IMG/VR virus record: IMGVR_UViG_3300020041_000023
Coordinates: 1-6,261 of that record
Origin: a virus
Reading direction: 5' to 3' (one strand)
Length of the DNA: 6,261 bases
Positions 993-6,261 of this stretch are shown here, piece after piece. Positions within the stretch are counted from its first letter, which is position 1. Each line of letters begins with the position of its first letter. Position numbers and translations under genes: made by a program. The notes beneath the pieces were generated by a model that made no database searches, had not been told where the DNA came from, and was given only the letters and a program-made list of their open reading frames with translations.

Positions 993-1187
993 ATGCAGAA
1001 ATTTATTATCTCTCTTAAAGAAAAACAAACTGGTCGTGATGTTATGCCGCCTTATATTGTCAATTCTCTGGATGGTCTTGGAAATTATTCTGAGCGAGTT
1101 TCTCCGTTGGGTCTTATTGTTATTGTGGATTCAATTAAAGAAGAAGATAGTTTTGTTGAACTTAAAACTCAAAGTGATGAAAAGTAA
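993..1187 (+). CDS. Hypothetical protein, 64 aa, with no recognisable family
   Basis: The ORF runs ATG to TAA. T occupies the third codon position in 37 of 64 codons (hand count), matching the genome-wide coding signature. The overlapping alternative frame has only 8 of 47. It is the first ORF after the intergenic region. Confidence 0.62.
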   Translation: MQKFIISLKEKQTGRDVMPPYIVNSLDGLGNYSERVSPLGLIVIVDSIKEEDSFVELKTQSDEK

Positions 1188-1260
1188 TAATATTTGGAAA
1201 ATTATTATCGGTGCAGTATCTGCTGCTCTTGGTTATATTCTTAATGCTATCGGATTATGA
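1177..1260 (+). CDS. 27-aa single-pass membrane micro-protein (MKSNNIWKIIIGAVSAALGYILNAIGL), a candidate holin-like or membrane-disrupting lysis partner
   Basis: The ATG at 1177 is in the frame of track ORF 1036..1260. There is a short polar/basic N-terminus followed by an uninterrupted hydrophobic stretch of about 20 residues. T is at the third position in 17 of 27 codons, matching genuine genes. Without this ORF, 1188..1256 would be non-coding in a very compact genome. Its stop TGA (1258-1260) overlaps the ATG (1257-1259) of the peptidase as ATGA. Its start overlaps ORF64 by 11 nt. Confidence 0.55.
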   Translation: MKSNNIWKIIIGAVSAALGYILNAIGL

Positions 1261-1565
1261 ATATGTCTCTTATGCTTTTTCTTGATTACTTGTTGTGTTC
1301 TAATGTTCATTTTTCGGTAACTAGTGCAAGGCGTACTCCTGAACAGAATAAGGCTTGTAATGGTGCTCCTAATTCTCAACATTTAACAGGCGAAGCTATT
1401 GATATCAAACCTTACGGTTCTACTAGTTTTAGTAAGCTGCTTGAGATGACTCATGATTATTCTGATCAAATTTCTCCTCATGACCAGCTTATTATTTATC
1501 CTGGTTTTATTCATATTTCCTTTGGTCCGCGTTGTCGTCGCCAGGTGATTGATAAAAGAAAATAA
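1257..1565 (+). CDS. Zinc peptidoglycan peptidase, Peptidase_M15 (M15A/M15_3-like, LAS superfamily), a compact 102-aa endolysin-type enzyme
   Basis: The sequence SARRTPEQNKACNGAPNSQHLTGEAIDI contains the family hallmark SxHxxGxAxD (S40..D49, nt 1374..1403; His42 and Asp49 are the predicted zinc ligands). The C-terminal IIYPGFIHISFG (His86, nt 1512..1514) corresponds to the family's terminal 'fvHvD' block. It is start-coupled to the upstream TM micro-ORF, and its stop lies 2 nt before the VP4 ATG. Confidence 0.85.
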   Translation: MNMSLMLFLDYLLCSNVHFSVTSARRTPEQNKACNGAPNSQHLTGEAIDIKPYGSTSFSKLLEMTHDYSDQISPHDQLIIYPGFIHISFGPRCRRQVIDKRK

Positions 1566-1567
1566 TT

Positions 1568-3403
1568 ATGAAATATACTCCTGATTCACTTAAAGCTGCT
1601 GATCATTGCCAGCATCGTTCTTTTATAACTAATCGTTACACAGGTCAGCGCATTGCTGTAGATTGCGGACAATGTGATTACTGTATTCATAAGCGTGCTC
1701 AAAAAGCGTCCATGCGTGTGAAGACCGCTGGAAGTGCTTTCCAGTATTCTTATTTTGTAACTCTTACTTATGATAATGAGCATATTCCTTTGATGAATTG
1801 TGAGGTTCTGGATAGTGAGTATCAAGATGCTTTAAGTATTTCAGGAGATAAAGTTTTTGGTTATGAACGTCATTCTTATATCCCTGTTTCTGACTATCAA
1901 CCTGAGGATTCTTCCCTTTTGCGTCATATATTCTTCACGCAAGTTCAAGGCACAGTGCCGTTTGACCGTGAAATCAAGGAATATGTTTCTGTTAAGGACA
2001 ATTGGTTTCTTAGTATGGATGCTATTCGTAGTTTTATCCGTAAAACGCAGGCCGTTGACAATTCAGTATATCCCGTTGCTGAAAAATACGGTGTTGATAA
2101 CCTTATACCCTTTCTGAATTATGTTGATGTTCAGAACTATATTAAACGCTTACGTAAATATTTATATAAAGTTTTAGGTTCTTATGAAACGTTACACTTC
2201 TACGCTGTGGGTGAATACGGACCAGTCCATTTCCGCCCGCATTATCATATCTTATTATTCACTAACTCGAAAGAAGTCTCAGAGGTATTACGACAGTGTC
2301 ATGATAAGAGTTGGAAGCTCGGTCGTTCAGATTTCCAGGTTGCCCGCGGTGGAGCTTCATCATACGTTGCGAGTTACGTTAACAGCCTTAGCTCTGCTCC
2401 CTTGTTATATCGGTCATGCCGCGCATTCAAGCCCCGACAAAGAGCGTCTCTTGGATTTTTTGAAAAAGGCGAGGTTTTTGAGGAAGGTGAGGACGTCTAT
2501 CACGCGATTGAACAAAAGATCGATTCTGTCGTTAATGGACGAGTCTATAACTTCAACGGGATTAGTGTTAAATCAACTCCCCCCATGTCGTATATACGTA
2601 CCTTACTCCCCCGATTCTCAAGTGCTCGCTATGACGATGCTGTTGCGATTGCTAGAATTATTCGTGCTGTTGCAGATGCGCCAAAAAGAATTGCAAGGTT
2701 CGGTATTATAGATTATGATTCCGGTTCTATCCTTTCTATTGTTCGTGCTTATTATCAGTATCTTACATTGAATCATCACCTAACCAATGAAGACGAAATT
2801 GTATTACATAGTGCTCGGTGCCTTACTAGGCTCTGTAACTGTTCTTCTGATGTCGATATTGAATCTTATCTTAATAAGTTGTATCGGTTATTCCTTTATG
2901 TCAGCAAGTTCCTTAGGAATTGGCATCTGCCTCCCATCGGTGGCAATCTTGATTCTTATGCCAATCGTATTAATTTTATCATCAAAACCGGAATAGAATA
3001 TGAAAAGAAAGCCGATTATGTACGAATGTGTGATGCGCTCCGAATTCAAGAAACATGTGAATTCCCTTTATTGCGATATTTTTATTTACCAGCCTCAGGA
3101 TGTGAAGTGTCGACCGTTAAGGAGGAGGAAGACGGAACATTTTCCACGTACACTATTCGAGACAGAATGGCAGGAATCAAGCCGCTCGTCTTACATTTTG
3201 ATGACCCCCGAAAATTATTACTTTCCCCAGCTCTTTCTCGTTTGGTCGGACCATCCTTTAAAGCCTCGCAACCTGCAAATTACAACGATTTGTGCGACGA
3301 CTTACAAAGGTGTTTGGATAGCCGTTCATCGAAATACTGTCGCGATATGATTAAGCATAAGAAATTGAATGATGCAAACAATATATTTAACCGTATGGTT
3401 TAA
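1568..3403 (+). CDS. VP4: Rolling-circle replication initiator VP4 (HUH endonuclease, phiX174 gpA-like), 611 aa
   Basis: There is an N-terminal CGQCDYC cysteine cluster (aa 33-39). Motif I is FVTLTY (aa 63-68, nt 1754..1771). The HUH motif is HFRPHYHILLF (aa 221-231, nt 2228..2260). The double-tyrosine motif YVASYVNS (aa 266-273, nt 2363..2386) is almost identical to the phiX174 gpA active-site YVAKYVNK. Confidence 0.95.
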   Translation: MKYTPDSLKAADHCQHRSFITNRYTGQRIAVDCGQCDYCIHKRAQKASMRVKTAGSAFQYSYFVTLTYDNEHIPLMNCEVLDSEYQDALSISGDKVFGYERHSYIPVSDYQPEDSSLLRHIFFTQVQGTVPFDREIKEYVSVKDNWFLSMDAIRSFIRKTQAVDNSVYPVAEKYGVDNLIPFLNYVDVQNYIKRLRKYLYKVLGSYETLHFYAVGEYGPVHFRPHYHILLFTNSKEVSEVLRQCHDKSWKLGRSDFQVARGGASSYVASYVNSLSSAPLLYRSCRAFKPRQRASLGFFEKGEVFEEGEDVYHAIEQKIDSVVNGRVYNFNGISVKSTPPMSYIRTLLPRFSSARYDDAVAIARIIRAVADAPKRIARFGIIDYDSGSILSIVRAYYQYLTLNHHLTNEDEIVLHSARCLTRLCNCSSDVDIESYLNKLYRLFLYVSKFLRNWHLPPIGGNLDSYANRINFIIKTGIEYEKKADYVRMCDALRIQETCEFPLLRYFYLPASGCEVSTVKEEEDGTFSTYTIRDRMAGIKPLVLHFDDPRKLLLSPALSRLVGPSFKASQPANYNDLCDDLQRCLDSRSSKYCRDMIKHKKLNDANNIFNRMV

Positions 3404-3424: not shown

Positions 3425-5149
3425 ATGAGTGATTTTAATCCGCTAGACCGAGCGAAAGTTGCCGTGCATCGCTCTTCCTTTGACTTGTCTAGTAAAAAAT
3501 TGTTTACGGCAAAAGTTGGAGAGATTCTTCCTTGTTATTGGCAGATTGCTATTCCTGGTAACAAGTATCGTATTTCTTCTGATTGGTTTACTCGTACTGT
3601 TCCTGTTAATACGGCCGCATATACTCGTATTAAAGAGTATTATGACTTTTACGCTGTGCCGTTACGTTTGATTTCTCGTGCGCTTCCGCAGGCGTTTACT
3701 CAAATGACGGATTATATGACGTCTGCCGCTAGTAATACAGCTAACACCGAGATGTTGACTTCTGTACCGAATACTACTTTGAACCTGTTGTCTCTGAGTC
3801 TTCAAACGATCAGTGGACATGATGTCTTAGATGATGCCGGTCTTCCTTATGTTTATGGTGCTTCTAAGTTATTAGACATGCTTGGATATGGTTCTTTCCT
3901 TCATTCTACTAATACAGCTAAATCCATCATTACTCAGGCTTATCTAGGTAAAGATATGGATAATGATACTTATAACCCTTTGGTTTACAGTGTTAGTCAG
4001 ACTGTAAATCTTCTTCCGTTGTTGGCTTATCAGAAGATCTACTACGATTTCTTCTCTGAATCTCAATGGGAAAAGCACTTGGCTTATTCTTACAATGTTG
4101 ATTATTGGGACGGTAAATCTCAATTGAATCTTGCTTCTGAGATGCTTCAGCTGCGTTATGCTAATTATCCGAAAGACTACTTTATGGGTATGCTTCCTGC
4201 TAGTCAGTATGGTGCGGTTGCTGTTTTCCCGTCTATTTATATGCCTGAAGCTTCTTCTAATTCTGTCGTCGCTGTTGGTAATCCTAATGTGGACTATGTT
4301 GTTAATCCTGCTTCTTCTAGTACTGTCTCTACTTCTGGTGCGTTCACCTCTAAGCGTAATGTTACTATTAATTCCGATTTATCCGCCCTTTCAATCCGTG
4401 CAACAGAGTACCTACAGCGTTGGAAAGAAGTAGTTCAGTTCTCTAGTAAGGATTATTCAGATCAGATGGCAGCCCAGTTTGGTATTAAAGCCCCCGAATA
4501 CATGGGTAATCATTCTCATTATATTGGAGGTTGGTCTAATGTAATCAATATCAATGAAGTTCTCAATACCAACCTTGAAGCGGCTGATTCTCAAGCCGTA
4601 GTCGCTGGTAAAGGTGTTGGCTCTGCTTCTGGCCATATATTGACTTATGATTGTGGTGCCGAACATCAGGTGATTATGTGTGTATACCATGCTGTGCCTA
4701 TGGTTGATTGGAATCTGACTGGCCAGAATCCTCAGTTGACTGTTACGGCTATTACTGACTTCCCCCAACCTGCGTTCGACCAGCTGGGTATGCAGCCTGT
4801 CCCTGCTCTGAATCTTCATAACAACCCGTCTCGTTCTGTTTCTGGATCTATCGGTTATAATCTTCGCTACTGGCCATGGAAGACTAATATTGATACTGTT
4901 CATGCTGCGTTCCGTTCTGGTATGGCGTATCAGTCTTGGGCTGCTCCTATTGATGGTTGGGATGTTCTCACCTCTTCTGGTGCTTGGTCTTATCAGTCAA
5001 TGAAAGTTCGTCCTCAGCAATTGAATTCTATTTTTGTTCCTCAGGTTTCTGGAGAAAACTGTTCTGTTGCATTTGACCAGCTGTTGTGTAATGTCAATTT
5101 CCAAGTTTATGCTGTTCAGAACTTGGATAGAAATGGTTTACCTTATTAA
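3425..5149 (+). CDS. VP1: Major capsid protein VP1 (Microviridae F-protein family), 574 aa
   Basis: The N-terminal region HRSSFDLSSKKLFTAKVGEILPCYWQIAIPGNKY...YYDFYAVPLRLISR matches the conserved gokushovirus/phiX F-protein N-terminus (RSSFD..., ...G.L.P....LPGD..., ...FFVPLRLIW). The size, T3 codon bias and position after VP4 all fit. Confidence 0.96.
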   Translation: MSDFNPLDRAKVAVHRSSFDLSSKKLFTAKVGEILPCYWQIAIPGNKYRISSDWFTRTVPVNTAAYTRIKEYYDFYAVPLRLISRALPQAFTQMTDYMTSAASNTANTEMLTSVPNTTLNLLSLSLQTISGHDVLDDAGLPYVYGASKLLDMLGYGSFLHSTNTAKSIITQAYLGKDMDNDTYNPLVYSVSQTVNLLPLLAYQKIYYDFFSESQWEKHLAYSYNVDYWDGKSQLNLASEMLQLRYANYPKDYFMGMLPASQYGAVAVFPSIYMPEASSNSVVAVGNPNVDYVVNPASSSTVSTSGAFTSKRNVTINSDLSALSIRATEYLQRWKEVVQFSSKDYSDQMAAQFGIKAPEYMGNHSHYIGGWSNVININEVLNTNLEAADSQAVVAGKGVGSASGHILTYDCGAEHQVIMCVYHAVPMVDWNLTGQNPQLTVTAITDFPQPAFDQLGMQPVPALNLHNNPSRSVSGSIGYNLRYWPWKTNIDTVHAAFRSGMAYQSWAAPIDGWDVLTSSGAWSYQSMKVRPQQLNSIFVPQVSGENCSVAFDQLLCNVNFQVYAVQNLDRNGLPY

Positions 5150-5159
5150 TGTATTGATT

Positions 5160-5603
5160 ATGAGAAGTTTTGCGTATAAAAATGAGAATTTTGAAAAGAA
5201 TTCGTATGTTCCTGTGTTGAAGGAAGGCAATCCGTGTTATCAGGCTTCTGTTTATGATTCGGTTATGTATGACGAGACTCCTGATGGTGACTTGATTCAA
5301 TGCGATATGACCCAGATCCTTTTGAATCAGGAAAAGTACCGTCGTTTGCTTGGTGATATGAACGTCAATAATATCCTTGCTCAAATGCATCCTACTCAAT
5401 CTACTGTGATGGACGGTATGACAGACGAGGAACGATTTAAATGTGTTATATCCCGTCATTGCCAGACAATGTCTGAACGTCAGGCTGTATTGTCTGAATT
5501 GGCGTCTCAACATTCTGAGTTGTCTAAGTTCGCTGAGTCTATGTTGGCAGAGCAAAGTGCAGAGCCCGCTCCTGATGCGTCCGCCACTGCACCTAGTGCT
5601 TAA
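5160..5603 (+). CDS. Hypothetical 147-aa acidic protein between VP1 and VP2, possibly an internal scaffolding (VP3-like) protein
   Basis: The ATG at 5160 is the first start after the VP1 stop (5147..5149). The upstream part of track ORF 5034..5603 overlaps VP1 and is an artefact. The stop TAA (5601..5603) overlaps the VP2 ATG (5603..5605) as TAATG. The protein is acidic and looks helical, with a low-complexity tail AEQSAEPAPDASATAPSA. I recognise no family motif. Confidence 0.6.
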   Translation: MRSFAYKNENFEKNSYVPVLKEGNPCYQASVYDSVMYDETPDGDLIQCDMTQILLNQEKYRRLLGDMNVNNILAQMHPTQSTVMDGMTDEERFKCVISRHCQTMSERQAVLSELASQHSELSKFAESMLAEQSAEPAPDASATAPSA

Positions 5604-6261
5604 TGGGTCTATTTGATGCTATCGCCTCCACTGTCGGTAATCTTACCGACAATGTGATAGGCATGGTTAACCAAAATCATCAGAATAAGGTTAACCTCCG
5701 TATGATGCGTGAGCAGAATTCGTTTAATGCTGAGCAAGCTCAGCTTCAGCGTGATTGGCAAGAAGATATGTGGGATAAGAATAATGCTTACAATTCTCCG
5801 GATGCTATGATTTCCCGTGGCTTGAATCCATTTGTTCAAGGTTCTGCCGCTATGGCTGGCTCTAAATCTCCCGCCTCTGGCGGTGCTGCCGCTACAGCCG
5901 CCCCTGTTCCATCTATGCAGGCTTTTAGGCCTAATTTTTCCAACGTCTTTAATAGTTTGGCTTCCCTCGCTCAAGCGAAAAAAGCACAATCAGAATCTAA
6001 TAATATTGATGCTATTACTCCTCAGATTGCTAACTATTATAAAGGTATGACAAATTGGAAGAATCTGGCTATCGGTGAGTCTGGCTATTGGAATAAGGAT
6101 ACTGGTCGTATCTCTGCTTCTTTGGATCAGTCTACAGAAGCTCAGGAATTGAAGAATCTTCAGTTTGCTGAACGTCTGTCTGCTGCTCAGGAGACTCAGA
6201 TTCTTTTGAATTCTGAGGCTCAACGTATATTAAACCGTTATCTTGATGAACAACAGCAAGC
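5603..6261 (+). CDS. VP2: DNA pilot / minor capsid protein VP2, N-terminal part. It has no stop in the window and continues at position 3 after circular wrap-around. The full CDS is 1122 nt, 373 aa.
   Basis: I translated it by hand with no stop codon: MGLFDAIASTVGNLTDNVIGMVNQNHQNKVNLRMMREQNSFNAEQAQLQRDWQEDMWDKNNAYNSPDAMISRGLNPF... The block N.FNAEQAQ..RDWQE.M....AY.....M...GLNP (nt 5717..5830) is the conserved signature of gokushovirus-type VP2 proteins. The ORF is missing from the supplied track only because it runs off the window end. Confidence 0.9.
   Translation, partial: MGLFDAIASTVGNLTDNVIGMVNQNHQNKVNLRMMREQNSFNAEQAQLQRDWQEDMWDKNNAYNSPDAMISRGLNPFVQGSAAMAGSKSPASGGAAATAAPVPSMQAFRPNFSNVFNSLASLAQAKKAQSESNNIDAITPQIANYYKGMTNWKNLAIGESGYWNKDTGRISASLDQSTEAQELKNLQFAERLSAAQETQILLNSEAQRILNRYLDEQQQ
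6141..6261. repeat. Terminal redundancy copy 2, identical to 1..121
   Basis: Exact 121/121 identity with the window start. It lies inside the VP2 coding sequence. Confidence 0.97.

Follow-up and report, generated by a model that had tools for sequence, protein, structure and literature searches.

M15 peptidases of microviruses and the closest characterized enzymes

Peptidases of the M15_3 type were described in 11 Microviridae genomes by Roux et al. (2012), who showed their horizontal acquisition and proposed a role as endolysins (PMC3394797). Kirchberger et al. (2022) later saw in them accessory genes associated with lysis that recur and connect many microvirus families, in a survey that explicitly ignored overprinted genes (PMC9239249). 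Among cultured microviruses an M15 peptidase is found in marine roseophages, in vB_RpoMi-Mini and in Bacteroides phage phiHBP1, and GenBank labels the corresponding CDSs of the clade studied here (Dulem viruses, Microvirus sp. OP549867, bajarodmic viruses) as 'peptidase'. These papers, the cultured carriers, the GenBank labels and the ~1,750 homologous clusters retrieved for the 102-aa ORF analyzed below show that the peptidase finding was already known, contrary to the statement in a preliminary description of this DNA that such ORFs had been seen only sporadically in microviruses. Microvirus M15 peptidases have been in print since 2012 and are now standard annotation, and the gene itself is ordinary; the modest interest that remains lies in a coupled 27-aa gene and in a predicted swap of D76 for D88. 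The companion statement, that none of these enzymes has been characterized, appears to hold for those encoded by microviruses: no biochemical characterization of a microvirus M15 enzyme was found in the searchable literature, which is incomplete. As apparently none has been assayed, lysis in microviruses other than the phiX type is still an inferred process.

Assays exist for three M15A endolysins of tailed phages. Muralytic activity is experimentally established for LysPM1 of Proteus phage Homer (116 aa, PMC13461873), the smallest characterized M15A endolysin found, and for the ST79 peptidase M15A of a Burkholderia phage (~18 kDa, PMC5025407). In LysPM1 the Asp of the H-x-D ending (D106) is proposed to act in proton transfer, and in the M15A type enzyme 1LBU R138 binds the substrate carboxylate and H195 of the HxH motif is the general base (PMC13461873). 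Homologues from cultured tailed phages are part of lysis cassettes: in Stenotrophomonas phage Siara, genes for an endolysin, a holin/antiholin, an i-spanin and an o-spanin follow one another.

The 102-aa protein described here has the Pfam family, the virus family and the proposed endolysin role in common with the published microvirus M15_3 peptidases, and nothing essential sets it apart from them, the 27-aa gene being without annotation in the close GenBank relatives checked. In the relatives that share its gene order the peptidases are 55-81% identical to it (81% for OP549867 and 55% for MZ089802), and the 134-aa enzyme of phiHBP1 is 39% identical over 80 residues. Like LysPM1 and ST79 it is a small globular protein made up of one Peptidase_M15_3 domain, has the SxHxxGxAxD motif, a third ligand in (W/F)xH and the Arg equivalent to R138, lacks a signal peptide and belongs to a Gram-negative host setting. 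It differs from them in its length (102 aa versus 116 aa and ~18 kDa), in being encoded by an ssDNA phage and in having a predicted activity. With respect to LysPM1, H-I-S takes the place of H-x-D and is accompanied by a D76-Q77 pair that is missing from the four H-x-D sequences compared, three of a sample of 107 and that of Proteus phage Myduc. The 1LBU enzyme, of 213 aa, carries an N-terminal peptidoglycan-binding domain that is lacking in the 102-aa peptidase, where Phe84 occupies the position of H195.

Genome organization and probable host

In the window, that is the whole stretch of 6,261 nt analyzed (record IMGVR_UViG_3300020041_000023), the first 121 bp recur exactly at the end as a direct repeat (1-121 = 6141-6261). 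This repeat is read as an assembly overlap, and the window therefore represents a whole genome, a circle of 6,140 nt. All the listed genes lie on the + strand of this circle:

3425..5149, + strand, VP1 major capsid protein, 574 aa (Pfam Phage_F 1.7e-19; PHROG 514 1e-51)
5160-5603, + strand, 147-aa ORF
5603..6261, + strand, 5' part of the DNA pilot gene (VP2), ORF rebuilt over the circular junction
993..1187, + strand, acidic soluble 64-aa protein, function not assigned, conserved in all relatives
1039..1260, + strand, possible 73-aa long form of the 27-aa frame, overprinting the 64-aa ORF
1177..1260, + strand, 27-aa hydrophobic peptide gene
1257..1565, + strand, M15A / Peptidase_M15_3 zinc peptidase, 102 aa, probable endolysin
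1568..3403, + strand, VP4 / replication initiation protein, 611 aa (Pfam REP_ORF2-G2P 1.7e-15; PHROG 942 9e-35)

The VP1 protein is 86% identical to the major capsid protein of Dulem virus 254. The pilot gene runs from 5603 to 6140 and continues over the junction through positions 1-584, giving a protein of 373 aa; it has a weak match to the pilot family PHROG 1471 and the same position as the annotated pilot genes of OP549867 and MZ089802. The order capsid, hypothetical, pilot, small hypothetical, peptidase and Rep is shared with these two genomes. A GC-rich intergenic region separates the pilot gene from the 64-aa ORF, whose product (pI 4.7) has no hydrophobic segment and no match in Pfam or PHROG, and whose gene is placed directly upstream of the putative lysis pair. 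The peptidase ORF had been described as a 102-aa frame at 1257-1565, just upstream of VP4, with the sequences SQHLTGEAID and GFIHIS and taking up about 5% of the genome, and so it is: its stop codon lies 2 nt ahead of the VP4/Rep ATG (1568) and its 309 nt represent 5.0% of the 6,140 nt. Rfam and tRNA scans of the window found nothing.

The relatives of this virus were sampled from faeces, saliva and vagina. Among cultured viruses the capsid comes closest to that of the Bacteroides microvirus phiHBP1 (31% identity). The earlier gokushovirus label is not established. Shine-Dalgarno-like motifs were found upstream of none of the genes, which we take to be a Bacteroidota-like trait, and no prophage relative turned up when VP1 was searched against 185,579 reference genomes. 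A Gram-negative bacterium of the gut or of a mucosa is the probable host, and it may belong to the Bacteroidota.

Family membership and conservation of the peptidase

The 102-aa ORF is a real member of the Peptidase_M15_3 family (M15A in MEROPS) and not a chance match. It scores 38.7 bits (E=1.2e-9) against the Pfam profile Peptidase_M15_3 (PF08291), well over the gathering cutoff of 23.2 bits, and matches PHROG 894 'endolysin' at 1e-13; an identical protein is present in public databases with PF08291 precomputed. A search of the PDB with the single sequence returned only the T5 endolysin, at a non-significant level (E=0.77), so that a profile search was needed. The profile built from 91 relatives has its best match in 1LBU, at 7.7e-14, in an alignment that pairs R26, H42 and D49 with R138, H154 and D161 of that enzyme, and reaches the hedgehog N-domains at 1e-4 to 1e-3. 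The profile HMM search proposed in the preliminary description thus supports its reading of the ORF as an M15/LAS zinc-peptidase homologue in a microvirus.

The residues expected to bind the metal are all in place. The SxHxxGxAxD motif with zinc ligands 1 and 2 is present as S40-Q-H42-L-T-G45-E-A47-I-D49 (SQHLTGEAID, residues 40-49), and the (W/F/H)xH motif with the third ligand, near the C-terminus, is present as F84-I-H86 (within GFIHIS, residues 83-88); position 84 is F, W or H in 99 of 107 relatives. Further marked residues are R26, the D76-Q77 pair, S88 in the F84-x-H86-x-S88 stretch, and R94. Across 91 diverse relatives R26, N31, S40, H42, A47, D49 and H86 are invariant, the first of them being the equivalent of R138, the substrate-carboxylate Arg of 1LBU, and conservation reaches 90% or more at S23, G36, G45, D76, Q77, I79 and R94. 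The gene is under purifying selection, with a ratio of synonymous to nonsynonymous changes (S:N) of 11802:4981 in 33 unique close relatives.

Predicted fold

AlphaFold2, run on the alignment of relatives, gave a model with a pLDDT of 97.2 and a pTM of 0.88, and a LAS fold, with its central antiparallel sheet and flanking helices, is predicted confidently. When the model was compared with the PDB by Foldseek, the top 16 matches were all LAS/M15/hedgehog proteins, including 1LBU (the best structural match), ChiX, VanY, the T5 endolysin, LysB4, hedgehog-N and LdcB, so that the structure prediction that had been suggested as a check agrees with the family assignment. The statistics of these matches are weak to modest for this small domain (best E 1.7e-3, TM ~0.56-0.60, probability up to 1.00). 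Among the viral models of BFVD, a 76%-identical protein of 102 aa superposes at a TM of 0.97, and many 'Peptidase M15A, C-terminal' proteins, other microvirus peptidases among them, are matched as well. The hedgehog N-domains (Shh/Dhh/Ihh-N) show an H-V-S ending and an F-D motif in the profile match and a Foldseek TM of ~0.6; these are eukaryotic signaling ligands of ~150-175 aa, and the kinship is at the level of fold or superfamily only.

No signal peptide or transmembrane segment could be seen in the peptidase, no 19-residue window reaching a mean Kyte-Doolittle value of 1.6, as the preliminary description had anticipated for the signal peptide. The hydrophobic N-terminus is modeled as a helix (residues 3-14) inside the fold, with a pLDDT of ~97.

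A short N-terminus and an H-x-S ending

The 108-position Pfam profile is matched from position 44 onwards. What is missing is the part covered by positions 1-43, with its F-x-x-x-E motif, and the protein has ~30 residues fewer at the N-terminus than the family consensus, in line with the earlier remark that it is shorter than its family. In relatives of 130-150 aa the aligned part starts near residue 50, and a length of ~100 aa is confined to the nearest clusters. As read from these alignments, the truncation removes a non-catalytic segment and leaves the predicted catalytic core unaffected.

At the other end of the protein the counterparts of 1LBU H195 and LysPM1 D106 are both missing, and F84 and S88 stand there instead. 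The Ser found where an Asp had been expected after the last His is a true difference with respect to the H-x-D type, but the anomaly that the preliminary description saw in it disappears when the relatives are compared: in ~106 of them position 88, two residues after the His, is occupied 76 times by Ser, 20 times by Gly and 3 times by Asp. The H-x-S ending is therefore that of the majority of the subfamily, where it occurs with the D-Q pair. In a sample of 107, position 88 is S, G or A wherever D76-Q77 is present, and all 3 H-x-D sequences of the same sample are without D76, as is also Proteus phage Myduc. This mutual exclusivity of D76-Q77 and H-x-D points to two subfamilies that may differ in where the acidic residue is placed, and it is the one observation that suggests D76 as a candidate substitute for the Asp of H-x-D.

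The loss of ~30 N-terminal family residues, together with a Ser at the position where LysPM1 has the Asp proposed for proton transfer, could also be taken as the mark of a catalytically dead remnant, crippled by the truncation and by the loss of H-x-D and retained for wall binding or otherwise repurposed, in the manner of the inactive wall-binding module considered earlier. We regard this as very unlikely. No variation is seen at the three metal ligands or at the substrate Arg, D76-Q77 is kept in 90% or more of the relatives, the purifying selection is clear, and the fold is predicted at very high confidence without the N-terminal segment; in addition, H-x-S with D-Q characterizes most members of a large subfamily, among them proteins of cultured phages annotated as endolysins (Siara, phiHBP1). 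We consider it quite probable that the 102-aa protein is an active muralytic enzyme used for lysis, with a predicted activity and bond specificity.

A coupled gene for a 27-aa hydrophobic peptide

A closer inspection of the DNA upstream of the peptidase revealed a short ORF (1177-1260) encoding the 27-aa peptide MKSNNIWKIIIGAVSAALGYILNAIGL. This ORF was overlooked in the preliminary description. Its TGA overlaps the ATG of the peptidase as ATGA (1257-1260). The peptide has a basic N-terminus and a single hydrophobic segment (residues 9-27, mean Kyte-Doolittle value 2.03), which by its hydropathy would provide the transmembrane segment looked for in a holin. The chain ends inside this segment (...YILNAIGL) and is without a hydrophilic C-terminal tail. 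Holins typically have a charged hydrophilic tail at the C-terminus, and the peptide is far smaller than any holin known to us.

Of the 54 relatives with upstream DNA, 53 carry a hydrophobic ORF of 22-36 aa that ends within a few bases of the start of the peptidase, and in the 54th the ORF has a probable GTG start. The ATGA overlap is kept in 46 of the 54. Where the peptidase is only 47-55% identical, the same slot is occupied by a second peptide type (type B, MKSETKSKIWSAIIAAAVSLLTSIAQIFS). Diversity in the 27-aa frame at codon positions 1, 2 and 3 amounts to 0.112, 0.005 and 0.272, and its S:N is 2885:472, as against 818:3191 and 158:3769 in the shifted frames; the ORF is therefore clearly a coding gene. 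The peptide is under tighter constraint than the peptidase (S:N 6.1 versus 2.4).

The peptide has no match in Pfam and no significant family in PHROG, where its best matches are the non-significant 443 'holin' (E=0.13, with the type-B peptide) and 937 (E=0.4). With the 73-aa frame described below as the query, all the database homologues of the reading frame belong to the same microvirus clade. The names CsbA, cytochrome c oxidase IV and TctA, which the sources offer for the long frame, were rejected: they are mutually inconsistent and were judged artefacts of hydrophobic composition. A similar, annotated ORF of 31 aa (MSTKNKTFETILRVIIAVASALAGAFGYSQF) precedes a full-length peptidase of 162 aa in the distant bajarodmic virus 1034. 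A small membrane ORF is nevertheless not a general companion of microvirus peptidases, none being present in phiHBP1, in bajarodmic viruses 766 and 550 or in MG945334. No description of the coupled mini-ORF was found in the searchable literature, which is incomplete, and the gene is possibly the only detail of the locus that is new.

The strong conservation of the peptide, tighter than that of the peptidase, invites the reading that the peptide (or its 73-aa form) is itself the primary lysis effector, a single-gene-lysis 'amurin' or membrane toxin comparable to phiX174 E or to the small Sgl peptides of ssRNA phages, with the peptidase merely speeding the breakdown of the wall. Its single hydrophobic segment and basic N-terminus presumably resemble the functional domains of Sgl proteins, and in many microviruses the peptidase occurs without a peptide of this kind, many others having neither, so that lysis solutions vary among them. 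We find this reading unlikely, both for the peptide as the effector and for the accessory part that it leaves to the peptidase: the peptide has no homology to known lysis proteins, and the strict ATGA coupling argues that peptide and peptidase act together. As a holin-like partner of the peptidase the peptide is a plausible candidate, and we put the chance that it permeabilizes the membrane in this way at a little under even.

A possible overprinted 73-aa form

The frame of the 27-aa gene can be extended upstream to a form of 73 aa with three hydrophobic segments. All 33 unique relatives (33 of 33) keep this long frame open, as compared with ~2% of synonymous resamplings, and the synonymous diversity of the 64-aa gene is halved in the overlap (0.137 versus 0.245-0.32). 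However, the extension is without purifying selection of its own (S:N 1597:3886), the ATG of the long form is a by-product of the 64-aa frame, where a conserved pair of Asp and Val codons imposes it, and the long frame is closed in three type-B relatives. To judge from these alignments, the true product of the frame may be either the 27-aa peptide or the longer form of 73 aa.

Proposed role in lysis

In the mechanism that we propose, the peptidase would be made in the cytoplasm, without an export signal, and late in infection it would meet the wall only once the inner membrane had been breached. A protein without an export signal needs such a membrane lesion, and the breaching agent would most likely be the 27-aa hydrophobic peptide, the gene of which lies immediately upstream. 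The ATGA stop/start overlap would couple the translation of the two, and peptide and peptidase would form a cassette of ~390 nt analogous to a holin plus an endolysin, in which the peptidase, acting as a phage endolysin, would cut the peptide stems of the peptidoglycan. The lack of an export signal and the adjoining, coupled hydrophobic gene fit the layout predicted for a holin-dependent endolysin. Overall, the 102-aa ORF probably encodes a functional, minimal M15A zinc peptidase of the LAS fold that serves as an endolysin and may be released via the 27-aa peptide.

The arrangement resembles that of the tailed-phage cassettes such as the one of Siara, in that a predicted cytoplasmic muralytic enzyme stands beside a co-translated small membrane protein. 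It differs from them in that the candidate partner is of only 27 aa, with one hydrophobic segment, no tail and no holin family, in that the partner gene is placed upstream rather than downstream, and in that no spanin equivalent, or other evident outer-membrane-disrupting gene of the spanin type, was found in the genome.

Tailed phages also use the domain in a different context, fusing M15A C-terminal domains to proteins of the tail or baseplate type (Gp5 OB-fold, large 'cell wall hydrolase'), and a virion-associated entry enzyme that opens the peptidoglycan locally for DNA delivery could be imagined here on that precedent. This is highly improbable for the present locus, where the enzyme is a free protein of 102 aa without a region for interaction with capsid or pilot, its gene is flanked by non-structural genes and coupled to that of a membrane peptide after the logic of a lysis cassette, and its closest tailed-phage homologues are stand-alone endolysins within lysis cassettes. 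Moreover, no T=1 capsid of a microvirus is known to enclose enzymes of this kind.

Within the endolysin reading, we raise more tentatively the idea that the pair is the smallest cassette of the holin-endolysin type yet seen, made up of a single-helix mini-holin with a small-residue face (GAVSAALG) and an M15A enzyme pared down at the N-terminus, whose catalytic acid would have moved from H-x-D to D76; we hold this to be somewhat doubtful. A longer, overprinted isoform of 73 aa may be part of it. If this idea is true, the locus would give the lysis mechanism of an abundant gut microvirus clade and a minimal model of holin function. The 102-aa protein is in any case a very small, confidently folded candidate for an activity test and for enzybiotic engineering, and the 27-aa gene offers a concrete and cheaply testable hypothesis for the route by which an enzyme without a signal reaches the wall.

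Peptidase start sites in public annotations

Two ways of joining the peptide to the peptidase in one product were considered. A programmed frameshift between both ORFs was rejected, as GGATTATGA offers no slippery heptamer. In Dulem viruses 238, 226 and 243 the annotated 'peptidase' is of 124 aa, and a fusion of peptide and peptidase was likewise discarded for them: the 21-residue extension is not conserved, whereas the small-ORF frame that it overlaps is. The peptidase CDS has in these three genomes been extended over the 27-aa gene in the wrong frame. Public annotations of the clade thus miss one gene and misplace some of the peptidase starts.

Pairing of peptide and peptidase genes

The arrangement of a short hydrophobic peptide gene in front of an M15 peptidase gene was also seen in bajarodmic virus 1034, a microvirus relative whose peptidase is of full length (162 aa). 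The upstream reading frame, placed 25 nt before the peptidase, is annotated as follows:

PQ007304, locus positions 615-710: 31-aa hypothetical protein, hydrophobic core ILRVIIAVASALAGAFGY

This core resembles that of the 27-aa peptide, and the peptide-peptidase pairing therefore extends beyond the compact-peptidase clade.

The same region is affected by misplaced starts in three GenBank entries:

PP511332, PP511396 and PP511322 (Dulem viruses 238, 226 and 243), locus positions 1138-1512: 124-aa CDS annotated as 'peptidase' or hypothetical

The annotated start lies 63 nt too far upstream, and the resulting extension, unconserved among the three viruses, is a wrong-frame reading of the conserved small-ORF region.

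The 64-aa protein and the overlapping frame

993-1187: soluble acidic protein of 64 aa (pI 4.7), conserved

No family match was found for this protein. By eye only, a stretch '...I.I.DSI...' is shared with the 54-aa protein at the equivalent position of phiHBP1, a cultured Bacteroides microvirus.

The frame of the 27-aa ORF continues upstream over positions 1039-1176, within the 64-aa ORF, where it is open in 33 of 33 relatives, as against approximately 2% of synonymous resamplings, and where synonymous diversity in the 64-aa gene drops by half. These two features suggest a possible overprinted membrane protein of 73 aa or, alternatively, another constraint on the region. The evidence is conflicting, since no purifying selection was detected in the alternative frame over 1039-1176 and some distant relatives do not keep this frame open, both of which count against the 73-aa form.

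Genome ends and gene coupling

Positions 1-121 are an exact direct terminal repeat (121 bp) of positions 6141-6261, and the contig represents a complete, circular genome 6,140 nt in length.

5603-6140 plus 1-584: pilot (VP2) gene, 373 aa, crossing the circular junction
1568-3403: VP4/Rep, long (611 aa)

The ORF at 5160-5603 has a stop codon that shares bases with the ATG of the pilot gene (TAATG), and 2 nt separate the peptidase stop from the start of VP4; the gene chain is therefore tightly coupled. No Shine-Dalgarno-like motif was found upstream of the starts at 993, 1177, 1257, 1568, 3425, 5160 and 5603, all preceded by A/T-rich contexts. In VP4/Rep, the Pfam Rep domain covers residues 186-272 alone and the PHROG match residues 22-272 alone, with no match in the C-terminal ~330 residues.

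An intergenic island with predicted structure

600-830: GC-rich island, intergenic, between the pilot stop (584) and the 64-aa ORF (993)

The GC content of this island is 0.59 (~0.35 nearby). Its predicted ssDNA structure is strong (-43.4 kcal/mol, z = -3.9), none of 200 shuffles being equally stable, and Rfam returned no match. The island is kept in relatives, in which it surfaces as a recurrent spurious 'MERSDFL...' ORF, and it could possibly represent a complementary-strand origin or other structured element.
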